A stretch of DNA of 55,093 nt from a virus (IMGVR_UViG_3300032093_000174:1-55093), one strand, 5' to 3'. Counted from the first letter of the stretch, positions 3,157-27,463 are shown. Translations and numbers: made by a program. Notes: generated from the sequence alone by a model not told the origin.

Positions 3157-3362
3157 TGTTTGAGCCGGGCGCAATTGTTGATCTCAACGACCACATCTTT
3201 GGCTGGAGAGGACAATATAAAGTGATGCCCAAGAAGACAGAAACCTCCGTGGTCAAGATTAAGAATATGGGGACAAACAGTGAGCAGTTTGTCAGTGCCG
3301 ACAGGCTTCGCAGGAGTCGTTTGTCACAATTCTTCATCAAGAGCCTTGCACCCAAACGATAA
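3153..3362 (+). CDS. small hypothetical protein (SH3/KOW-like pattern)
   Basis: GTGA overlap with previous gene. Confidence 0.6.
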   Translation: MMFEPGAIVDLNDHIFGWRGQYKVMPKKTETSVVKIKNMGTNSEQFVSADRLRRSRLSQFFIKSLAPKR

Positions 3363-3436
3363 GCAGCGCTGATGGTTCAGGGGCTTGACCGGGGCTCCGT
3401 CCATGGGCATTATGGCTTCAACGAGGCGCGAGCCTC
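3359..3436 (+). promoter_or_regulatory. early promoter with 15-bp dyad box and 5' GNRA hairpin
   Basis: ATAAGC-AGC-GCTGAT; TTGACC-17-CATTAT; GAGGC-GCGA-GCCTC. Confidence 0.7.
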
Positions 3437-3452
3437 TCATTCCTTTCTTTCC

Positions 3453-3758
3453 ATGACCACCTACCTCCTCGGCTACGCAACCAAAACCCCCATCGTGCGC
3501 GGCTTCCTTCGCCACGCTGGTAGCAGCATCGTCAGCGTGGAATTCGTCAAGGCTGACGGCAGCCTCCGCAAGATCCAGTTCAATCCTTGCGACCGCCAGG
3601 AAATCAAAGGCACTGGCAAGCCCTCTACCAATGCTTCCATTGTTCGTTGCCGCGACTTTGCAGTGGCCCGCAAGGATGGGCAGGGCGCTTGGCGCTCCTT
3701 TGACTGCGAGCGTGTGGTCAGCATCACCGCTAAGGGCGAAACGCTGGTGCTGGCCTGA
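3453..3758 (+). CDS. SH3-fold WYL_2/DUF2693-like phage protein
   Basis: VSVEFVKADGSLRK…GTGK…AWRSF…RVVSI pattern. Confidence 0.65.
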   Translation: MTTYLLGYATKTPIVRGFLRHAGSSIVSVEFVKADGSLRKIQFNPCDRQEIKGTGKPSTNASIVRCRDFAVARKDGQGAWRSFDCERVVSITAKGETLVLA

Positions 3759-3761
3759 TCG

Positions 3762-3835
3762 TTTGTAAACAATTGTGACGGGGGCCAATCCAGGCCCCTC
3801 TGTCCTGTATTGTTCTCTCACGAGGCGCGAGCCTC
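3762..3835 (+). promoter_or_regulatory. early promoter with HLR1-like site and 5' GNRA hairpin
   Basis: TTTGTAAA-CA-ATTGTGAC; GC dyad; TATTGT at 3808; GAGGC-GCGA-GCCTC. Confidence 0.7.
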
Positions 3836-3853
3836 TCCTTTCCTTCCCCTCCC

Positions 3854-4114
3854 ATGGCAACCATTCCCACTGTCCACCTCAACGGCACTGGCGCCAGCAC
3901 GCTCCGCGACGAGTATTGGGCCGCTTCCAAGGCGCTTGATGCAGCCGCTGAAGCACTTGCAGCCGCCACTTGCCATGGCCGCGACTTCTACCCTCAAGGC
4001 GCTGGTGCCTACGACCAGGCCCGCCATGAGCGCGACGTTGCTTTTCAAAAGCTTGACGAAGTGACCCGCTACGTGGACGAAATCCTCGGAGGCATCTGCG
4101 ACCAAATGCCCTGA
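3854..4114 (+). CDS. hypothetical protein (PTVHLNGT…HGRDFYPQ)
   Basis: ORF directly after conserved leader. Confidence 0.75.
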   Translation: MATIPTVHLNGTGASTLRDEYWAASKALDAAAEALAAATCHGRDFYPQGAGAYDQARHERDVAFQKLDEVTRYVDEILGGICDQMP

Positions 4115-4166
4115 AGTGTGAAGCTTTGTAACGGGGCTTGACCTCAGGCCCCAAATGAACTAATTT
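4115..4166 (+). promoter_or_regulatory. early promoter with HLR1-like site
   Basis: AGTGTGAA-GC-TTTGTAAC; TTGACC-17-TAATTT. Confidence 0.65.
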
Positions 4167-4198
4167 TCCTTTCGTCAGCCAACTTTCCTCTCAAAGCC

Positions 4199-5200
4199 AT
4201 GAGCCACCAATTCACCTCCGGCGTGTTCTTCAACAACGAGCCCGCCTGGCACAAGCTTGGCACCGTCCTCGACGGCACCCAGCCCGCTCGCGAAGCTTTC
4301 GCCACTGCTAATGCCTCCTGGGAAACCATCAGCACTCCCGTGTTCGATCCCACTGGTGAGCCCATCCCTGGCTACCAGGCCATCACTCGCGGCGACACTG
4401 GCAATGTGCTCTCCATCCAAAGCGAGAGCTATGCCATCGTTCAAAACGAACAGCTCATTCGCGTGGCAGAAGCCCTGCACGAGGATGCAACGATGGATGC
4501 AGTGGTGGTGCTCAACGAAGGGCGCAAGGTTGCATTCACTGCCAAGGTGAACAATTCCGAAGCCGATGTGCTCCCTGGTGACACCATCCACCAATACCTT
4601 GTTGGTTGCACTTCTCACGATGGCACTATTGCCTTCCAGGTGATGTTCAGCCCCATTCGTGTGGTTTGTCAGAACACGCTTTCCTACGCTCTAGGCCGTG
4701 CTGCTGCTGGTGCATCCACCAAGAAGATGCGCATTCGTCATACCAAGAACGCCAACGCTCTCATTGATCACCTTCCCTCGATCATTGACATGCAGCGCCA
4801 GCAGTTCACTGCGGGCATTGATGAACTGAAGGCAATGGCCGCCAAGCCCTGCACTTCCGCTCTGTTCCGTCAGTATTGTGAAAGCGTGTTTGCCGACCAA
4901 CTGGTGGGCATGACCAACGACAAGCGGGGCGACAAGAGCACTGCCCGCTCCAAGAAGCTGGAAGACCTCACTGCCTGGGACAATGTGGCCAACAAATTCC
5001 ATGGGGAAGGCATTGGCTTTGATATTCCTGGCGTGCAAGGCACCATGTGGGGCGCCTATCAAGCCATCACGGAGTATTTCTCGCACGATGCAGGCCGTGC
5101 CGTGGATTCCATTGATGCTGCCCGCCAGCGTCTGGAGAGCCTCTACTGGGGCACTGGTGCTGCCACTATCGCCAAGGCCCACTCCCTGGCTCTGGTTTGA
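4199..5200 (+). CDS. DUF932 / TIGR03299 phage-plasmid family protein
   Basis: PAWHKLG…Y.IVQN…SHDG…PIRVVCQNTL…IRHT…GTMWGAYQAITEY motifs. Confidence 0.85.
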   Translation: MSHQFTSGVFFNNEPAWHKLGTVLDGTQPAREAFATANASWETISTPVFDPTGEPIPGYQAITRGDTGNVLSIQSESYAIVQNEQLIRVAEALHEDATMDAVVVLNEGRKVAFTAKVNNSEADVLPGDTIHQYLVGCTSHDGTIAFQVMFSPIRVVCQNTLSYALGRAAAGASTKKMRIRHTKNANALIDHLPSIIDMQRQQFTAGIDELKAMAAKPCTSALFRQYCESVFADQLVGMTNDKRGDKSTARSKKLEDLTAWDNVANKFHGEGIGFDIPGVQGTMWGAYQAITEYFSHDAGRAVDSIDAARQRLESLYWGTGAATIAKAHSLALV

Positions 5201-5203
5201 GCC

Positions 5204-5282
5204 ATAAGCAAAGATCATCAATGGAGGGGCTGGTAACGGCCCCTTTTTCGCTTATTGTTCTTTCAATGAGGCGCGAGCCTCA
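5204..5282 (+). promoter_or_regulatory. terminator-overlapping early promoter with 5' GNRA hairpin
   Basis: AGGGGC…GCCCCT plus T run; TATTGT at 5253; TGAGGC-GCGA-GCCTCA. Confidence 0.7.
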
Positions 5283-5296
5283 CCGCCTTTCACTCC

Positions 5297-5494
5297 ATGG
5301 ACATCTCCGTCAACTACACCTCTCCCTGGGACAAGCGCTACTGGGCCAAAGACTACGCAGATGAGGCCTTGCGTATCCTCGTCTCCTCTGGTCGATGGCC
5401 CGCAGGCTCTCTGGTGGTTGAGCACACCGACCCTGCTAGTCCCACCCATTGGCGCGTGGTGTCCGTCACGGGCATCCAGCAACCGGGCTGGTGA
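5297..5494 (+). CDS. hypothetical protein
   Basis: ORF after conserved leader. Confidence 0.65.
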   Translation: MDISVNYTSPWDKRYWAKDYADEALRILVSSGRWPAGSLVVEHTDPASPTHWRVVSVTGIQQPGW

Positions 5495-5509
5495 ATTTGG
5501 CCCAATGGC

Positions 5510-5561
5510 TTGACGCCTGTCCCGCTTGAGCTTATTGTTCTTTCAACGGGCCGCGAGGCCC
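5510..5561 (+). promoter_or_regulatory. sigma70-type early promoter with 5' GNRA hairpin
   Basis: TTGACG-17-TATTGT; GGGCC-GCGA-GGCCC. Confidence 0.8.
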
Positions 5562-5576
5562 TCCTCACTTCCAGCC

Positions 5577-5957
5577 ATGACCCGCATCAATCACACCGTT
5601 GAACAGCTCACCACTGCTGATGCCTACACCGTCTTCAGCGGCCTCAACACCATCCGCATGACCATTACCGTGCCCGATTGGCACGAGCCTTTCCCCAGCC
5701 AGAAGCGCATGGGTGCTGCCAACCCCCGCACGCTGGAAATGACCGGCCTGCTGCACGTAAGCCGCACTTGGTATATCAATGGCCCTGTGATGGATCAGTG
5801 GACCATTTCCACGCTCAACGGCCCCGTGCATGTGCCTGCTGGCACTCGCATTGAGACAGAGGAGCTTCCCGAAGTGTGGGAGGCCAATTCCAAGCCCAGT
5901 AGCCCTGGCAAGAAGGAGTGGTACGCCTATACCAATGGCCGCACTGCCTTTTGTTAA
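5577..5957 (+). CDS. hypothetical protein
   Basis: ORF after conserved leader. Confidence 0.7.
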   Translation: MTRINHTVEQLTTADAYTVFSGLNTIRMTITVPDWHEPFPSQKRMGAANPRTLEMTGLLHVSRTWYINGPVMDQWTISTLNGPVHVPAGTRIETEELPEVWEANSKPSSPGKKEWYAYTNGRTAFC

Positions 5958-6025
5958 GCATTGTTACGGGCCCCTTTCCAGGGGCCTCTTTCGTTCTATT
6001 GTCTGTTCAACGAGGCGCGAGCCTC
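5950..6025 (+). promoter_or_regulatory. early promoter with HLR1-like site and 5' GNRA hairpin
   Basis: TTTGTTAA-GC-ATTGTTAC; GC dyad; TATTGT at 5997; GAGGC-GCGA-GCCTC. Confidence 0.7.
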
Positions 6026-6041
6026 TCTCTTCCTTCTTCCC

Positions 6042-6278
6042 ATGACCTCCTCCTTCATCCAAGACCAGCTCATTTCCATGGTTGCTCGCTTCATCTGCGA
6101 AGCCAAGGCTGGCGACATGCTCATGCTTCCTGCCATGGCAGCCCTCCACAAGCGTGAAGATGGCCGTATCTGCATGAGCCGCCGAGGAAGCCTGCCCATG
6201 CCCCTGTGGGAGCCCCTGAGCCACGATATTGTTGCCACCATCGTTCGGTGGAGCAAAGAAGACCTCCAGGCCGCCTGA
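6042..6278 (+). CDS. hypothetical protein
   Basis: ORF after conserved leader. Confidence 0.65.
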   Translation: MTSSFIQDQLISMVARFICEAKAGDMLMLPAMAALHKREDGRICMSRRGSLPMPLWEPLSHDIVATIVRWSKEDLQAA

Positions 6279-6322
6279 GCGGCCTCTCTCCCCTCCGCAT
6301 CCTCCGCATCCTCCCTAGAACC

Positions 6323-6511
6323 ATGCAAGACACCATCAACATCCTGGCCATCAGCAACAAAGGCCGTAGCCGCATTGGCACCACCATCACCACTGCCATT
6401 GTTGAGCAGAATTTTCACGACAAGCTTTTTATTGTGCTTCCGCAGTTCAATCAATGCCGATGGATTAAAAGGAACAATGATCCTGACTTTCGCATTATCC
6501 CGGAGGATTGA
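6323..6511 (+). CDS. hypothetical protein
   Basis: ATG after pyrimidine-rich leader. Confidence 0.6.
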   Translation: MQDTINILAISNKGRSRIGTTITTAIVEQNFHDKLFIVLPQFNQCRWIKRNNDPDFRIIPED

Positions 6512-6550
6512 TTGCTCTCCTAGCAATTACTGTTCCATCGCTTTCCTACC

Positions 6551-6859
6551 ATGCACACCATCCGCAACTACAACAGCAACGGGCCTTACTTTCCCTCCAC
6601 TCAGGGGGTGTATCAAGCAGCCCGTCTCCGCGAATTGATCATGCACGTCAGAGTGTGCATGCAAGATGGAGACTACCAAATTGGTGTGTTTGATGATGAT
6701 GGTCAATGCAAAGGTATTTGGACTGATGAAGCAGAGCCTGAGCCTGATGGTGAAGGAGGCATGGTTCTAGGAAGGCCCGCTTATGTGCTGTATCGCCCTG
6801 GCGACATCCCTGCAGGTTTGTGGAACCTGATGCTCTCCAAGTTCAAGAGGGTTCGATGA
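6551..6859 (+). CDS. hypothetical protein
   Basis: 102-aa ORF with ATGA coupling to next gene. Confidence 0.7.
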   Translation: MHTIRNYNSNGPYFPSTQGVYQAARLRELIMHVRVCMQDGDYQIGVFDDDGQCKGIWTDEAEPEPDGEGGMVLGRPAYVLYRPGDIPAGLWNLMLSKFKRVR

Positions 6860-7011
6860 TTCTCGTAGATTTCTTCTCTGAAGAGGCCTGTAAAGGCACG
6901 GAACTCGTAGAAGGCTGGTATTGGTATGAGGACGATGGGGAAGAAGTGGGAGGGCCGTATAGAGACGAGAAAGCCGCCATTGCGGCGGCTCAATCAGGGC
7001 TTAAATGGTGA
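6856..7011 (+). CDS. small acidic protein (GWYWY…GGPY…AI.AA)
   Basis: ATGA coupling; GAGG upstream. Confidence 0.6.
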   Translation: MILVDFFSEEACKGTELVEGWYWYEDDGEEVGGPYRDEKAAIAAAQSGLKW

Positions 7012-7095
7012 GGGTCCGGCTGGTTTTGTATTGGATCCGGCTGAAAGTGTATTGGGTCCGGCTAGAGGTGTATTGGGTCCGGGCAAGGGTGTATT
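7006..7095. repeat. ~4 tandem 21-bp repeats (TGTATTGG(G/A)TCCGG…)
   Basis: TGTATT at 7027, 7048, 7069 and 7090. Confidence 0.9.
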
Positions 7096-7121
7096 AGTGC
7101 GTTTGTACTATTTTCCTTGGC

Positions 7122-7140
7122 GAGAATGAGAATCGTTTTC
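7122..7140. promoter_or_regulatory. Fur-box-like site
   Basis: GAGAATGAGAATCGTTTTC matches GATAATGATAATCATTATC at 15/19. Confidence 0.6.
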
Positions 7141-7191
7141 AATAGTACTGGTGTACTGTAGTACTGGTGTACTACCATGCCGCCATGCGCA

Positions 7192-7280
7192 TAGCAGCAT
7201 ATGCCGGTAGCAGCATATGCCGGTAGCAGCATATGCCGGTAGCAGCATATGCCGGTAGCGACATATGCCGGTAGCGACAT
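7192..7280. repeat. 5.5 tandem 16-bp repeats TAGC(AG/GA)CATATGCCGG
   Basis: Units start at 7192, 7208, 7224, 7240, 7256 and 7272. Confidence 0.95.
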
Positions 7281-7300
7281 AATAGTGCAAATGTACCAGC

Positions 7301-7544
7301 ATAACCTGAGCCTATGATTCCCGGCCCTAGGATCAGCCAGGCTGATCAGACAAGCCGAGCCTATGGGCCAGCACCCCTCCCATAGCCTGAGCCTATCTGA
7401 CAAGCTGAGCTGATCAGACCGCCCCCTCTGACAAGCTGAGCTGATCAGACAAGCTGAGCCTATGGGCCGTGGCCCGCGTGACAAGCTGAGCTGATCAGAC
7501 AAGCTGAGCCTATGGGGCAAAGGCCAGTGATCAGCGCTGCTGAT
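7301..7544. repeat. ten 15-bp dyad boxes (ATCAGC-N3-GCTGAT-like), paired with ~50-bp period
   Basis: Starts at 7301, 7332/7350, 7382/7400, 7431/7449, 7481/7499 and 7530. Confidence 0.85.
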
Positions 7545-7715
7545 CAGGCCGCTAGTCTCACTTGTCTCGTGATAGGCGCGTGCGCGTGTGCGGTTCCAAT
7601 TACGGGGGGCGGCGATCACGGGCAGCAGCAGCAGCAGCCCCTACCATCCCTGCCCCCCTGCAGCCCTGGGCTAGTGGGCCACCTTTGCCACTGGCCCCCT
7701 AGCCTGGCCCTTTGG

Positions 7716-7766
7716 TTGACCTGCTACGGGGCCAGGCCCTTTAATGGGCTCACTGGCGAGAGCCAG
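7716..7766 (+). promoter_or_regulatory. promoter with 5' GNRA hairpin
   Basis: TTGACC-18-TTTAAT; CTGGC-GAGA-GCCAG. Confidence 0.65.
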
Positions 7767-7785
7767 CCCTCCACCCCCAAAGCTC

Positions 7786-9492
7786 ATGACCGCTTCCAAC
7801 CTGCCCAAAGCTGCCCTGGCCATCCTGGCCCTGCCGGGCGTCCAGTCCCTTGAGCGCGAGCCTGACGGCTGGTGCTGCCATCTGCACTACGGCTGGACGA
7901 CTGACGCCCTTAGTGGGGGCGGCACTATCATCGATTCAAACCTGGCCACAATCAGGGCCTACGTGAGGGGGGCCTATGTGATGCCAGCCCCTGCCCCTGC
8001 TGCAGTCCCTGCCCCCCATCCCTGCAGCGCTGAGGCCGTGGCCGACGACCTGCTATGGGCTTTGGATCAGCTTCGCTCAGAGCCTGAGCCTGCCCCTGCC
8101 CGTGGCCCCCTGCTGCCCGGCGAGACTGCCGCCCCTGCAGCCCCTGCCCCTGCAGGCCCTGCCCCTGAGCTGCCTGCCTTTGTCACCTGCCAGCAGCAGC
8201 AGCAGCAGCCGCAGCAGGGGGGCGAGTGGCGCCACCCTGCCCGTGGTGGCCGTGTGGCCTGGGATGAACCGGGAGAGTCTGCTGCAGCCCTGGCAGCCCT
8301 GCCCCCTCTGCCCCCTCTGCCCCCTGCCCCTGCTGCAGCCCCTGCCCCTGCTGCAGCCCCTGCCCGTCAGGCCGTGGCCCCTGGCCCCCTGGCCCGTAGC
8401 GTGGCCCCTGCCCGCTTACCTGCAGACGTGGCAGCTCTGCTGGCCCGATTTGGCCTTACGCTTGAAGGTCTTCTGACCGTGGGGGCCTCAAACGCCAAAC
8501 TCGCAAAGGGGGCGGCCCTGGCCTGGCCCGTGATCCTGCACCATCTGCCAGCAAAGGCCCTGGCTCAGGCCGTGGCAGGCCCTGCCCCTGGCAGCACTGC
8601 CCCCCGTAGTCGCATCCCTGGCCTGCAGGCCCTGGCAGAACGCGAGGGGGTGCTGGCCCTGGCCATGGCCCATAACGGCTGCCCCTGGGCATCTCAGGGC
8701 TGCGCGGCAGGCTGTCTGGCCTGGGCTGGCCATGGCGGCATGTCGGTGACCGTGGCAGCAGCCCGTGCCCGTAGGACTCTGGCGATGCTGGCAGGGGGGC
8801 CCGTCTACACCCGCGCCATCCTTTGGGCTCTGGCCCGTGCTTACCGGCAGGCTCAGGCCAAAGGGCTGCCCCTGGCTTACAGACTGCGCGGTACTGATGA
8901 TCTGCACTGGCATCTGGCCCGCCTCACTATCACCCCTGCAGAGGCTCAGAGCCTGGCCCGTCGCTATGGGTTGCCCGTGGCTCCCGGTGAGGGGATCACG
9001 CTTACTGAGGCCCTGGCCCTGGCCCCTGCTGGCACCATCCGCCCCTACGACTACAGCGCAGCCCCCGTGGATGGCCCTTTCGGCCTCAAGGCTCAAAGGT
9101 CAGCGGGCATCGATACGACCTGCAGCCTCAAGGCTGACCGGCAGGGGGGCGTCGACGTGGCGATACAGGCAGTCGCCGCAGGGTTCCGCGTGGCCGTGCC
9201 CGTGGCCCTGGCAAAGGGCCAGCCCTTGCCCGCCGTGCTGATCCTTGAAACCGGAGCCCAGGCCGTCGACCTGGCCTGTATCGATGGCGACACGTCCGAT
9301 CACCGATGGGCTGACCCGCAAGGGCCAGGCCTGGCAGGGGGCTGTGATGGCGTGGCCGTCATCCTGCGCACAAAGAGCAGCAGGGGCAAAGGGCCAGAGG
9401 CTGATGCATTCTCCCTGCAGCCTGTGATGGGCGTCTGGCAGCCCCTGGCAGGGGGCGGCCGGGCCATGCTCCGGGCTGAACCCTGGGCTTGA
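7786..9492 (+). CDS. Gp88-family protein with long Pro/Ala-rich N-terminal extension
   Basis: LLT…NAKLAK, CPWAS.GC..GCL..AG.G, RARRT, RLRGTDDL.W, YDYS and IDGD.SD.RW.DP motifs. Confidence 0.75.
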   Translation: MTASNLPKAALAILALPGVQSLEREPDGWCCHLHYGWTTDALSGGGTIIDSNLATIRAYVRGAYVMPAPAPAAVPAPHPCSAEAVADDLLWALDQLRSEPEPAPARGPLLPGETAAPAAPAPAGPAPELPAFVTCQQQQQQPQQGGEWRHPARGGRVAWDEPGESAAALAALPPLPPLPPAPAAAPAPAAAPARQAVAPGPLARSVAPARLPADVAALLARFGLTLEGLLTVGASNAKLAKGAALAWPVILHHLPAKALAQAVAGPAPGSTAPRSRIPGLQALAEREGVLALAMAHNGCPWASQGCAAGCLAWAGHGGMSVTVAAARARRTLAMLAGGPVYTRAILWALARAYRQAQAKGLPLAYRLRGTDDLHWHLARLTITPAEAQSLARRYGLPVAPGEGITLTEALALAPAGTIRPYDYSAAPVDGPFGLKAQRSAGIDTTCSLKADRQGGVDVAIQAVAAGFRVAVPVALAKGQPLPAVLILETGAQAVDLACIDGDTSDHRWADPQGPGLAGGCDGVAVILRTKSSRGKGPEADAFSLQPVMGVWQPLAGGGRAMLRAEPWA

Positions 9493-9932: not shown

Positions 9933-10231
9933 AAGGCCGCTTGCGAGAGGGTAGCTCCCCCAGGAGCGTCATTCATGCGGCCTTAGTCTTACTATTGTCT
10001 CATTTGAGACTGTTTTAAGACTGGTGATAGCTACGCACAATATGAGCGATCAATAGAAAAGAAGAAAGCGAAAGGAGGTGGTAGGGAAGGAGCCCAGGAA
10101 TGTACCGCCTTGGGGGCTCAGCTCGTAGGGCTCCTAGCAAAGGCTTCTTAAAAGAAGGGAGTTGAGAGGAGGATGGTGGAGCTGAGCCGCTTGTTATCTA
10201 TCGCCTTGGGGGCTCCTGCTCGTAGCGGCTT
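9933..10231. repeat. three related stem-loops (two on +, one on -) with conserved loop and different stems
   Basis: 9933-9984, 10088-10135 and 10184-10231; loop CGCCTTGGGGGCTC..GCTCGTA. Confidence 0.7.
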
Positions 10232-15070: not shown

Positions 15071-15269
15071 GACGTTTGACACGCCCATTCGTTGTAAATG
15101 GAACGCGCCCATTCATAATTTGTTGAAAGCCATTGATAATCACACCGAACTATTTCTTCTCCATGGAGACCCTTGGCATGCCGAAAAGGCAGCAGAACTC
15201 AGGGCTTATGTTCACGAACTAAAAACTTGGATCCACAAAGAAGAGCAAAATACCCTCAGCCAGATTTGA
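15057..15269 (+). CDS. hypothetical phage protein
   Basis: 70-aa ORF overlapping the previous gene. Confidence 0.65.
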   Translation: MSERRTFDTPIRCKWNAPIHNLLKAIDNHTELFLLHGDPWHAEKAAELRAYVHELKTWIHKEEQNTLSQI

Positions 15270-15324
15270 ACTGGCACTTGGCAGATTTTAAATCTGCGGC
15301 CTCTTCCGTTTGGGCTATGAGGGC
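15251..15324 (-). tRNA. trnL: tRNA-Leu(UAA), short variable loop, CCA not encoded
   Basis: Acceptor GCCCTCA/TGAGGGT plus A73; GCAGA-TTTAAAA-TCTGC; GCCAG-TTCAAAT-CTGGC. Confidence 0.9.
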
Positions 15325-25046: not shown

Positions 25047-25351
25047 GCGAATACGTGCGGGTGATTGAAGAAGAGGAAGATGGTATTGGCGTGATGAAAG
25101 CGCTTGCCATTCTTTCCGCTAACGAGCATCGCAACACCTCACAGTGGCGCCTCGTCGAAGAGCAGCATTTCAAAAATGGACGCCTCGATGAAACTCACAT
25201 TTTTGTCATTAATGCCTATGACAAGCCTGACAAGCATTTTGATCAAGTGAAGATGCTGGTTTTTGAGGCTGAGGCTATTGCAAAGTCTTATGTGATGGAG
25301 GGTATTGAAAGTCAACTTGCAGAACTGTCGGATGAAGAGGACGATGATTAA
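25043..25351 (+). CDS. hypothetical acidic protein
   Basis: ATGA coupling. Confidence 0.7.
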   Translation: MSEYVRVIEEEEDGIGVMKALAILSANEHRNTSQWRLVEEQHFKNGRLDETHIFVINAYDKPDKHFDQVKMLVFEAEAIAKSYVMEGIESQLAELSDEEDDD

Positions 25352-25590
25352 TCTTCGCTTACTGCGGAGACTACGAATGTGGGGTAGCCAAGAAGATACA
25401 AAATTGAAAGCTGAAAAGCAGAACTAAGCAAGCGTATCTCCGCGCAATCAGGCGAAATAATGCCTCGCTCCATTCGCGAAACGGTGGTTTGGTCGCAATG
25501 AAGGATGGCCGCTATGTCGCATTGTGACATGCCGCTGTTGAGGCGAGCTTCTCTCATTCGCTGTCCAATCACTTGCCTGCTTTCTTGCAT
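25348..25590 (-). CDS. XRE/Cro-C1 helix-turn-helix protein
   Basis: IGQRMREAR..SGMSQ..IA…QTTVSRMERG…P. Confidence 0.85.
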   Translation of the reverse strand: MQESRQVIGQRMREARLNSGMSQCDIAAILHCDQTTVSRMERGIISPDCAEIRLLSSAFQLSILYLLGYPTFVVSAVSED

Positions 25591-25708
25591 GGAAAGTATG
25601 GGAGCCTTTACTTTTGTGGTGATGCGCCGATGCTGAATATGCTGCATTTTTAGGCTGTATTTCCTAAGTTAGTCTATCTCGCGTTTTATTTCTTGATAGA
25701 GTATTGCC

Positions 25709-26899
25709 ATGAGCGACACCTGCTTTCGTTACGATGTAGCGCCGATTGACAAGTACGAAGTGACCCCTGAGGGTTATCTTCGTGCCTGGGCAACCATTGC
25801 GCGTACTGGTGTACAACATTACACCGACGCTGATGGTTCCATTCGTCGCGAATATCGTCCCGAAACCGAAGTGGCGTCTCCTGAAAGCTTGGCCTCATTT
25901 GCGGGCAAAGCAATCACTCTTGAGCACCCGCCAGTCTTATTAGATAGTGCCAATACAAAGGACTATCAAATTGGCTTCAGTGGCACTGAAGTGGTATATG
26001 ACAACGGCTTTGTCCGGGCAGTTATGACCATCACTGATCAGGAAGCCATTGAGCGCATTATGCGTGGTGATGCGAAGGAGGTCAGCGCTGGCTATCGCGT
26101 CAATTATGAAGCGACTCCTGGCGTAACCGACAGTGGTGAGAATTACGATGGCATCCAAACGGAAATCAGCGGAAATCACATTGCTGTTGTTCGCAGAGGT
26201 CGCGCTGGCCCGCAAGTGAAGCTTCATCTAGATCGTCTGGATGCTGCCGATCCTTCTCTATTTACTCCCATTGAGGAACCATCTATGACTGCAAAAGTCA
26301 ATTTTGATGGCGCTGAGTTTGAGGTGACCGAGAGCGTAGCTCTGGCGATCACCAAAGAACGGGAAGACGCCAAAATGTCCTACGAGGACATGAAGAAAAA
26401 GTGCGACGAGCTGCAAGCCGCCGCTGATTCCATGAAGGCCGAAATGGATGCCATGGAAAAAGAAATGAAGGGCAAGTGCGACTCTGCCGAAGGGCGTGCC
26501 GATGCTCTTGCTCAAGAACTGGAAGGCCTTAAGACTGATCTTGAAGCCGCCCAGAAAGTGAATGTGGACGGTCTTGTCGAAGAGCGCATTGCTCTGATTG
26601 ATAAAGCTCGCACTTCGCTTGATTCCGCTTTTGATTTTGCTGGCAAGTCTGCTCGCGAAATCATGGAAGCTTCCATCAAGGCCGTTCGTGGTGATGCTGA
26701 TTTGTCGGAGCGTTCCGACGATTACGTGACTGCCATGTTCGACACGCTGGCCGAATCGCCCCGCGCTGATTCTGCTGCTACGGAAGAACTGCGCAAAGCC
26801 GTTGCTTCCATTGCCTCTCCAGTATCTGCTCCTTCGTCCTACATGGACAAGCTTCAGAATGCTTGGAAATCCCCCCTCTCCGTTTCTAAGGAGCGCTGA
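25709..26899 (+). CDS. DUF2213 protein (prohead protease/scaffold)
   Basis: TPEGYL…ARTG…EYRP…ITLEHP…EVSAGY…NHIAVV.RGRAG, followed by coiled coil. Confidence 0.88.
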   Translation: MSDTCFRYDVAPIDKYEVTPEGYLRAWATIARTGVQHYTDADGSIRREYRPETEVASPESLASFAGKAITLEHPPVLLDSANTKDYQIGFSGTEVVYDNGFVRAVMTITDQEAIERIMRGDAKEVSAGYRVNYEATPGVTDSGENYDGIQTEISGNHIAVVRRGRAGPQVKLHLDRLDAADPSLFTPIEEPSMTAKVNFDGAEFEVTESVALAITKEREDAKMSYEDMKKKCDELQAAADSMKAEMDAMEKEMKGKCDSAEGRADALAQELEGLKTDLEAAQKVNVDGLVEERIALIDKARTSLDSAFDFAGKSAREIMEASIKAVRGDADLSERSDDYVTAMFDTLAESPRADSAATEELRKAVASIASPVSAPSSYMDKLQNAWKSPLSVSKER

Positions 26900-26902
26900 T
26901 CC

Positions 26903-27463
26903 ATGCCTGTAACTTTTTCCGCGTCGGGGTCTCCCTCTGCTGGCGGCGTGCAACAGAGCTACGCTCTTGTTCATGACGCACTGCTGGAAGGACAACTCTC
27001 TGACACCCGCGACAACACGATTAGCACCTGCATCAACGAAACCACCGTTGTGCAGCCTTTTGGTGACCTTCAGGTTTACAACCTTGCTGGTACTGTTGCT
27101 AACTCTGCAACCACCATTTCTGGCGCAACTGGCACCGTTCTTGGCGTCAACGTGCTCACCTACGTTGATGAAACTGCACGGAATGCCGACAATCGCCCTG
27201 GCGTCAAAGTTCGTCAAGCGATGAACGTTGCAAACGAAGGTGCAGTGGCCGTTTACGTGACTGGTGCAGTGAATCCTGCTTCGCCTGTTCGCGTGCTGTA
27301 TGCCGCCAGTGGCACTGGCAAGGCTGGTCAATTCAGTCATGCTTTTGCTTCTGGCCGTACTGTTCGCCTGTCCAACGCTCGCTTCCTCACGTCTACCACC
27401 AGTTCTGGTCTTGCGATCCTGGAGCTGAATGGTCCGAGCTTCACTCTCTCTGCCGATTCTTGA
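26903..27463 (+). CDS. capsid decoration/cement protein
   Basis: Between protease and major capsid genes; beta-rich. Confidence 0.7.
   Translation: MPVTFSASGSPSAGGVQQSYALVHDALLEGQLSDTRDNTISTCINETTVVQPFGDLQVYNLAGTVANSATTISGATGTVLGVNVLTYVDETARNADNRPGVKVRQAMNVANEGAVAVYVTGAVNPASPVRVLYAASGTGKAGQFSHAFASGRTVRLSNARFLTSTTSSGLAILELNGPSFTLSADS

Follow-up and report, generated by a model that had tools for sequence, protein, structure and literature searches.

Results

Hairpin cassettes at the locus

The DNA analysed here, the phage record IMGVR_UViG_3300032093_000174:1-55093 of IMG/VR (55,093 nucleotides, linear, estimated to be 76% complete, and called the window in what follows), carries between positions 3423 and 7766 six short hairpins, all on the + strand and each lying between a promoter-like sequence and the start codon of a gene. 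Of cultured phages, only Synechococcus phage S-CBS4, which infects Synechococcus sp. CB0101, is closely related to the window. The DNA of the two phages is ~70% identical, over small stretches, and their portal proteins are 68.5% identical; gene order is the same in both (small unknown genes, replication-region protein, ribonucleotide reductase, terminase, portal, head and tail), the hairpin region of the window corresponding to the right end of S-CBS4. The transcripts that would carry the hairpins are presumably early, judging by where the genes lie and by their promoters, which are of host type.

All features described in this paragraph are on the + strand, and the predicted +1 is the seventh base after the -10 hexamer, a position that is predicted and not mapped. 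Hairpin 1 (GAGGC-GCGA-GCCTC, 3423..3436) lies 9 nt after the -10 box (3408-3413) of the promoter-like TTGACC-17-CATTAT (3385..3413; 9 of 12 consensus matches; predicted +1, A3420), and its 16-nt leader (3437-3452) runs to the ATG at 3453 of a 101-aa protein that is tentatively WYL_2/Sm-like (3453-3758). The same hairpin recurs at 3822..3835, 8 nt after the -10 box TATTGT (3808..3813; predicted +1, A3820), itself preceded by a GC hairpin (3781-3798); an 18-nt leader leads to the ATG at 3854 of an 86-aa protein (3854-4114). The third -10 box, TATTGT at 5253..5258 (predicted +1, A5265), stands directly 3' of a terminator-like hairpin (5226-5243) with its T5 run, and is followed after 9 nt by the core of hairpin 3 at 5268, where a flanking T-A pair lengthens the stem to 6 bp ((T)GAGGC-GCGA-GCCTC(A), 5267..5282); its leader of 15 nt ends at the ATG at 5297 of a 65-aa protein (5297-5494). 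Cassette 4 joins TTGACG-17-TATTGT (5510..5538, -10 at 5533-5538, predicted +1 A5545), a promoter-like sequence detected by a simple scan, to GGGCC-GCGA-GGCCC (5548..5561), again at 9 nt, and to a 15-nt leader and the ATG at 5577 of a 126-aa protein (5577-5957). Cassette 5 has its -10 box, TATTGT, at 5997..6002 (predicted +1, A6009), 3' of a terminator-like hairpin (5968-5987), then GAGGC-GCGA-GCCTC at 6012..6025 (9 nt after the -10), a 16-nt leader and the ATG at 6042 of a 78-aa protein (6042-6278). The promoter-like sequence of cassette 6, TTGACC-18-TTTAAT (7716..7745, -10 at 7740-7745, predicted +1 A7752), was read from the sequence and is omitted by the simple scan; hairpin 6, CTGGC-GAGA-GCCAG (7753..7766), follows its -10 by 7 nt and is separated by a 19-nt leader from the ATG at 7786 of a 568-aa GP88-like replication-region protein (7786-9492). 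Relatives of the window have CTGGC-GCGA-GCCAG and other stems at this last site.

An earlier note, made from the sequence of the window alone, had reported these six hairpins, 7-9 nt after a -10 hexamer and followed by a C/T-rich leader of 15-19 nt without a Shine-Dalgarno (SD) sequence and then by ATG, and reading of the sequence, exact search and hairpin scan concur on every copy. All six loops are four-base GNRA loops closed by a Watson-Crick pair, and the six leaders are pyrimidine-rich and have no GGAG-type motif. The 14-mer GAGGC-GCGA-GCCTC occurs four times in the window and in none of 100 shuffles; the window has six GCGA or GAGA loops on perfect 5-bp stems, whereas 200 dinucleotide shuffles have 0.91 on average and never more than 4, and for 3300-7900, where all six lie, the shuffles average 0.12 and never exceed 1. 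Apart from these six, no perfect 5-bp GCGA/GAGA hairpin was found on either strand of the 55 kb. When the six predicted 5' ends were folded, the hairpin (alone, ~ -9 kcal/mol) formed every time in both the minimum-free-energy and the centroid structure, and the leader was unpaired. A covariance model of the whole cassette (R1) recovers hairpins 1 to 5, with E-values of 3.7e-10, 3.1e-08, 2e-11, 3.3e-13 and 1.1e-12, respectively, and misses the copy at 7753.

Read from its sequence, this region of the window is a string of small units, each with a terminator, a promoter, a hairpin, a leader and a gene. The hairpin accompanies six of the seven promoter-bearing genes between 3453 and 9492 and none of the three promoter-less ones: The genes at 6324, 6551 and 6856, downstream of cassette 5, have neither promoter nor hairpin. 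The contrasting case is the DUF932 gene (4199-5200), whose promoter-like sequence (TTGACC-17-TAATTT, 4138..4166, + strand) comes without a GNRA hairpin. Around this promoter, a GC hairpin at 4133-4152 holds the -35 box TTGACC in its loop. The terminator-like hairpins of preceding genes adjoin or overlap the next promoter at 3781-3813, 5226-5258 and 5968-6002, an arrangement that resembles the promoter-terminator coupling outlined for bacteria in a recent preprint (bioRxiv 10.64898/2026.08.19.745784).

Recurrence across related phages

We collected 60 loci on 58 IMG/VR contigs with two protein queries, by homology alone and without use of the motif. At least one cassette is present on 55 of these 58 contigs, and at least three are present on 24. 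Another 43 loci were collected by the cassette pattern and are hence selected for the motif; when all loci, these included, are pooled, there are 196 unique 50-nt contexts on 91 of 95 contigs. S-CBS4 has five cassettes (at 63662, 66675, 67137, 67590 and 68728) and an extra match at 9981, which lies inside a gene and is probably due to chance. Since covariance model R1 is dominated by sequence, the counts across the clade were made with pattern scans.

The organization of the cassette is much the same throughout. At 122 sites a GCGA or GAGA hairpin precedes an open reading frame (ORF), and these hairpins have 54 different inner stems; all but three (119/122) are on the strand of the gene by which the locus was oriented. 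The hairpin ends 15-19 nt 5' of the ATG at 89 of the sites, and a TAnnnT box occurs 3-12 nt upstream at 84, in the form TATTGT at 45. At 66 of these 84 sites a purine occupies the seventh position 3' of the -10 hexamer (A at 49 and G at 17), and all six sites in the window have A there; the predicted 5' overhang before the stem is 0-3 nt at 68 of the 84 and 4-6 nt at the remaining 16, mostly TAATTT promoters with a 12-nt gap. Over the 122 sites the leader is composed of A 0.18, C 0.45, G 0.10 and T 0.26. Its first bases after the stem are TCC or ACC, the flanks CAAC and WCC are conserved, and so is the start context CC-ATG-AC, with CC before the ATG in at least 90% of rows in the alignment described below.

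Searches of wider collections recovered the cassette chiefly from viruses. In the viral collection 51 of 54 pattern matches have the full cassette context. Among 185,579 reference prokaryote genomes there were 23 matches, none of them in cyanobacteria; 20 lack cassette context (chance or terminators), and the three true cassettes are on short contigs of metagenome-assembled genomes labelled Bacteroidetes, Aquiluna and Methylacidiphilales (L068, L081 and L089), which are probably mis-binned phage DNA of this clade. In metagenomes, 75 matches to an 18-mer comprise 19 strict cassettes, ~12 with a CACAAT-type -10 box and a remainder that is chance-like. No family of Rfam 15 lies at the hairpins: Only a tRNA reaches the gathering score in the window, and the four weak matches in 3300-7900 (gathering score or E <=1) overlap none of them. 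A literature search, whose reach did not extend to the original S-CBS4 genome paper or to journal supplements, turned up no description of the element.

Selection on structure and on the sense strand

A hairpin scan can return only sites that pair, so selection was tested on upstream regions chosen by the downstream protein alone. In the family of the 6042 gene, the hairpin is kept in 15 of 16 distinct upstream regions although protein identity goes down to 34%, with stems that include GAGGC/GCCTC, GAGGC/GCTTC, GAAGC/GCTTC, GAGCC/GGCTC, GGGCA/TGCCC and GGGGC/GCCTC, as well as six-pair versions, that of S-CBS4 among them. It is likewise kept in all ten distinct regions of the 5577 family and all five of the 5297 family; across the families that keep it, protein identity falls to 34-57%. 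In the 3453 family the outcome is mixed: A 5-bp hairpin is present in seven regions (the loop being GCAA in two of them) and a 4-bp one in another, five retain no more than GCC-GCGA-GGC, four lack a promoter but carry a 4-bp GCGA hairpin at 5-6 nt from the ATG, and three are without any hairpin. Upstream of DUF932 genes, a stem of at least 5 bp was found in none of 19 regions, and one has a 4-bp GAGA hairpin. For the replication gene, a G[C/A]GA hairpin precedes one of the first three in-frame ATGs in 13 of 26 regions, a set limited by start-codon ambiguity.

We aligned 44 of 51 such regions, leaving out the seven rows of the 3453 family that have no promoter cassette (L063, L062, L059, L061, L018, L054 and L027). 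In this alignment 92.8% of cells are paired, and each of the five pairs has been altered on both of its sides (28 cells). Covariation scores 0.470, versus 0.256 in shuffles, none of 500 shuffles scoring as high, and sliding the partner by 1-3 columns drops pairing to 21.6-61.1%. RNAalifold predicts the same five pairs.

The strand on which the structure forms can be judged from its imperfect copies. We examined 201 unique sites with at most one non-Watson-Crick pair, from 106 sources (1.26 Mb): 90 are perfect, and the single exceptions are G·T at 77, T·G at 4, A·C at 8, C·A at 4, C·C at 10 and others at 8. On the sense strand, single G·U pairs therefore occur 81 times versus 12 for A·C, and a C-to-T change in the 3' arm is tolerated ~7 times more often than the mirror-image G-to-A change in the 5' arm. 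Such an asymmetry is unexpected for a double-stranded palindrome or for an antisense RNA, and it indicates that the sense strand folds, with G·U allowed, and that sense-strand RNA is the selected form. The non-template DNA strand, which has the same sequence, would share this asymmetry.

The earlier note had held that the stems covary and that structure is therefore under selection. Covariation in the orthologous set, wobble asymmetry on the sense strand and recurrence across the clade all uphold this, and together they strongly support selection of the hairpin for its structure, as sense-strand RNA. The hairpin is tied to promoters and not to every start codon, and it occurs throughout the clade.

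Identity of the loop

In the orthologous alignment of 44 rows the loop is GCGA in 32, GAGA in 9, GCAA in 2 and absent in 1; over these covarying stems, the first, third and fourth loop bases are each conserved in at least 90% of rows, and the second is C or A. To place these loops among all others, we searched either strand of 63 sources (857 kb) for perfect 5-bp stems closing any of the 256 tetraloops, and tallied unique contexts. Of 353 hairpins before an ATG-led ORF of at least 40 codons, 53 have GCGA and 15 have GAGA, and the next best loop has 8, whereas the 135 hairpins followed by a T-run favour GAAA (14), ATCA (8), GCAA (7) and GTAA (6). When G·U pairs are also accepted and the stem has 5 bp or more, the GNRA loops before ORFs are GCGA 89, GAGA 33, GCAA 16, GGAA 15, GTAA 12, GGGA 10, GAAA 8 and GTGA 4. 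The proposal of the earlier note that the loop stays GNRA is thus right as to the four-base GNRA form and too broad as to sequence: The loop is essentially GCGA or GAGA, and its third base is G in nearly all 5' hairpins.

Product of the first cassette gene

The 101-aa protein encoded at 3453-3758 has 43 invariant columns among 16 orthologues. It has a sub-threshold match to Pfam WYL_2 (E 0.018, 15.8 bits versus a cut-off of 26.7), and its atlas neighbours carry WYL_2 or DUF2693. Its predicted fold is a helix plus a β-barrel (predicted local distance difference test score, pLDDT, of 82). The best structural matches are the WYL domains of PafBC, BrxR, DriD and CapW, together with SspB (Z 5.8-6.8), and Hfq/Lsm proteins come next (Z 4-5), all of them below the meaningful Z of ~8; Foldseek gave no match at E <=0.001. 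Support for an Sm-like/WYL fold is weak but consistent, a lead and not evidence, and on this model the protein is possibly a binder of single-stranded nucleic acid.

Discussion

Covariation, strand asymmetry and recurrence strongly support the view that these phages carry, where their small transcripts are predicted to begin, a real cis-acting RNA hairpin that is shared across the clade. Because Rfam has no matching family, the element is a candidate for a new family of cis-regulatory RNAs. To our knowledge, almost nothing has been reported, outside the T4-like and T7-like groups, on how cyanophages control their genes after transcription, and we know of no mapped promoters or transcripts for S-CBS4-like siphoviruses. 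With the element, this group gains an expression cassette that is defined and open to test, made up of promoter, 5' hairpin, SD-less leader and terminator, and the cultured pair of S-CBS4 and Synechococcus sp. CB0101 exists for such tests.

A possible explanation for the cassette, which we tentatively prefer at a little less than an even chance, is that a 5'-terminal stem-loop together with the initiating ribosome protects transcripts of the host polymerase from 5'-dependent decay. In this view the sigma-70-type RNA polymerase of the host would transcribe short units, most of them monocistronic, from promoters with a TATTGT-type -10 box, and each RNA would have at its very 5' end a cis-acting stem-loop of 5-7 bp closed by a GCGA or GAGA tetraloop; the full cassette would read as (terminator) -10 box, 6-9 nt, hairpin, an unstructured, purine-poor, C/U-rich leader of ~15-19 nt, and CC-AUG. 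With only 0-3 unpaired nucleotides before the stem, the hairpin would keep the 5' end from being single-stranded and thus from serving as a substrate for pyrophosphate removal or for nucleases that depend on the 5' end; in cyanobacteria the latter would include the 5'-to-3' exonuclease RNase J and possibly RNase E. The leader would then just fit an SD-independent 30S subunit against the hairpin, such that no naked A/U-rich RNA is left between stem and ribosome. By our estimate of the 30S footprint, a length of 15-19 nt would be about that of the shortest leader with a stable stem outside it. A role as a 5' stabiliser was among the suggestions of the earlier note, and the predicted 5'-end position of the hairpin fits it; the start site, the effect on decay and the nucleases involved are what we infer.

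Several properties of other systems make such protection plausible. As summarized in PMC3997798, 5'-terminal stem-loops stabilise the ompA, papA and aprE mRNAs, along with the ribosome-binding region, and RppH of B. subtilis requires at least two unpaired 5' nucleotides. According to PMC7283877, RNase J of Synechocystis is a 5' exonuclease acting on 5'-monophosphate RNA, and RNases E and J cleave single-stranded regions with a bias toward A; the cassette leaders are poor in A and G. A cyanophage is described in PMC9692554 as raising host RNase E while shielding its own mRNAs. As outlined in PMC5397173, a C just 5' of the start codon is typical of cyanobacterial genes without an SD sequence; SD-less starts with C before AUG being a cyanobacterial trait, the missing SD is ordinary for this host group. 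A candidate nuclease on the phage side, gp086 of S-CBS4 (26648-27379, annotated as 'Rnase E'), was rejected: It has only weak helix-turn-helix (HTH) matches (GerE/LuxR-type and sigma-70 region 4-like) and no ribonuclease domain, and the window ORF at 1026-1709 is no relative of it.

A number of considerations weigh against protection of the 5' end as the function of the hairpin. At TAATTT-type promoters the hairpin lies 12 nt after the -10 box, which leaves an overhang of ~6 nt in 11 of 84 sites and should weaken protection, and the DUF932 promoter manages without a hairpin in 18 of 19 lineages. Endonucleolytic cutting by Synechocystis RNases E and J was independent of 5' phosphorylation in vitro (PMC7283877), so that it is not established whether RNase E senses 5' ends in the host. 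The unique contexts that we count are not independent events, and the cassettes may share ancestry or have been homogenised by recombination. None of the 75 metagenome 18-mer matches falls within 5 nt of a contig start, in what was an uninformative scan. Finally, a 5' stabiliser gives no account of the GCGA/GAGA loop. Stability alone would permit GAAA or GCAA, loops that are as stable or more so and that terminator-like hairpins of these phages do use, and yet position 3 is G in nearly all 5' hairpins, for which reason a loop-specific reader stays plausible.

Among known systems, the phage element would, if its predicted start sites are right, work most like a 5' stabiliser of the ompA type. 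As in ompA, papA and aprE, a short stable hairpin is placed a few nucleotides from the 5' end (here a predicted one) and is followed by the ribosome-binding region; unlike those leaders, the phage element is a cassette repeated family-wide, with a near-fixed GCGA/GAGA loop, an SD-less C/U-rich leader and fixed spacing. We would therefore regard it as a variant of the 5' stem-loop leader, with a loop specificity that is unexplained and a function that we infer. The nut sites of lambda offer a second parallel, in that they too have a 5-bp stem with a GNRA-type G...A loop downstream of early promoters, in phage early genes separated by terminator-like hairpins. However, the boxB loop has five nucleotides, and that of the phage element has four at the six sites and throughout the alignment; four boxA-like strings, taken from the consensus, have no + strand match in 3300-7900; and, where a nut site occurs once per operon, the element would occupy +2 to +17 of almost all the small transcripts. 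A crude search for an N-type protein in the incomplete genome found, in 22 ORFs of 1-11.3 kb, no 18-residue window with more than six R/K. Membership in the boxB/nut class was rejected on the loop length and the missing boxA; what survives of the boxB-like tag put forward in the earlier note is its general logic of a loop-specific reader.

T4 RegB and RegA act on the Shine-Dalgarno or initiation region as sequence motifs. There, as here, a short RNA signal near the start of many early messages is shared, and class-wide control is possible; in the phages studied here, unlike T4, the signal has the form of a structured hairpin that precedes a leader without an SD, and no RegA- or RegB-like gene was identified. 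Closer to the proposal made here are the transcripts of cyanophage P-SSP7 in Prochlorococcus, which are made refractory to host ribonuclease (PMC9692554). In that T7-like podovirus the means are long antisense duplexes over whole transcripts, whereas in the S-CBS4-like siphoviruses it would be a 14-nt cis-acting 5' hairpin. If the stabilising role is correct, the element would represent a second route, besides antisense RNA, of escape from host RNases, as well as a compact expression part for picocyanobacteria.

The alternative that the loop itself is read, by a hypothetical trans-acting factor (a host protein, the ribosome or a phage protein) that recognizes GNGA and favours, antiterminates or later shuts off the whole class of messages, in the manner of lambda N/boxB or T4 RegA/RegB, is in our estimate possible but on the unlikely side. 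It accommodates directly the conservation of loop positions 1, 3 and 4 over covarying stems and the split between GCGA/GAGA before ORFs and GAAA/GCAA/GTAA before T-runs; and since one G-to-A transition at loop position 3 would yield GCAA, the rarity of GCAA also speaks for it. The first cassette gene, moreover, encodes the highly conserved WYL_2/Sm-like protein, whose fold binds single-stranded nucleic acid in DriD and CapW. That assignment is weak (a Pfam E of 0.018 that fails the cut-off, Z <=6.8), RNA binding by this protein is putative, the reader is so far hypothetical, and no boxA-like string or arginine-rich N-type peptide was seen in the searches above. Truly early transcripts would precede any phage protein, and the preference for one loop could partly reflect shared ancestry of the cassettes. 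A role in translation appears less probable still; here the hairpin would let SD-less leaders be initiated efficiently at a fixed distance, either by organising a site at which the ribosome stands by or lands or by bringing its GNGA loop into contact with the platform of the 30S subunit. Narrow spacing between hairpin and ATG (15-19 nt in 89 of 122 sites), the unstructured pyrimidine-rich leader and the conserved CC-ATG-AC context are what such a role would predict, but the same spacing is equally well explained as the shortest leader with a stem outside the 30S footprint, and the promoter-less genes at 6324, 6551 and 6856 share the C-rich CC-ATG context without having a hairpin. The hairpin therefore follows start sites and not start codons.

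Neither of two further explanations seems to us to have more than a slight chance. The hairpin could act as a promoter-proximal attenuator or pause, i.e., a weak intrinsic terminator just after the start site, and it does share GC-rich stems and GNRA loops with intrinsic terminators; a simple scan flags 3423, 3822 and 6012 as terminator-like (at least five T in the 8 bases after the stem). The tails of these three copies, however, are interrupted C/U tracts, e.g., TCATTCCTTT; the copies at 5268, 5548 and 7753 have no T-rich tail, and the clade has TCC or ACC after the stem. The stems are only 5 bp, whereas the true terminators of these phages have long T runs and other loops (GAAA, GCAA or GTAA), and the 5' hairpins follow a -10 box and lack a U-tract, on which grounds an intrinsic terminator was rejected. 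It is just as improbable that the element acts at the level of DNA, as an operator for a phage HTH repressor, as a hairpin that the non-template strand forms during initial transcription or as a linker for recombinational shuffling of small genes. It spans predicted +1 to +17, the classical position of an operator; it is nearly identical at four sites in the window, and the small genes that it flanks vary between relatives; and a repressor-like HTH gene is present at 25348-25647 on the - strand. Yet the window alone has stems of three types, and the clade has 54, so there is no single recognition sequence, and the 81 to 12 asymmetry of G·T over A·C is unlike a double-stranded palindrome, which we rejected for both reasons; of the DNA forms, only a single non-template strand would share that asymmetry. 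An effect on recombination would be a by-product of conservation and leaves the compensatory changes unexplained.

A more specific version of recognition through the loop, to which we again give a minor though appreciable chance, is that the GNGA hairpin serves as a class-specific 5' address label on small host-takeover mRNAs, with a dedicated reader. Candidates for this reader are the strongly conserved, stand-alone WYL_2/Sm-like protein of the first cassette gene and the host 30S subunit, the latter through a tetraloop-helix contact. If this is true, the reader would give SD-less messages privileged stability or translation, or would later switch the class off, and a post-transcriptional regulon defined by a 14-nt 5' tag would be something undescribed for phages of cyanobacteria. 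More generally, a loop that is read by any factor would imply a new phage system of RNA-protein or RNA-ribosome recognition.

Whatever its function, the cassette marks true gene starts and already suggests corrections to the annotation of S-CBS4 (L006). To judge from the S-CBS4 cassettes at 67137 and 67590, genes on the + strand would begin near 67170 and 67621, where the record has gp100 annotated on the - strand (67152-67631) and the start of gp101 at 67699, 26 codons 3' of the cassette ATG. A different hairpin context is conserved in S-CBS4 (4432, - strand) and in relatives (L042, L045, L055, L057 and L038), namely 'acgttca CCCNN-GCGA-NNGGG cgcATG' after a tRNA-like end; this hairpin is only 3 nt before the ATG, a context unlike that of the promoter cassette, and it does not follow the tRNA-Leu(taa) of the window (15251-15324, - strand). 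Immediately 5' of the replication-region gene of the window is a block of direct repeats (7012-7516) made of a 21-nt unit present 3.4 times (7012-7095), a 16-nt unit present 5.2 times (7192-7275) and a 50-nt unit present 3.6 times (7341-7516), which is probably an origin with iterons. Within the replication-region protein itself (window 7786-8100), a stretch of 44 residues shares 68% identity with a region that bears no annotation in the 244-kb Synechococcus phages B3 and B23.

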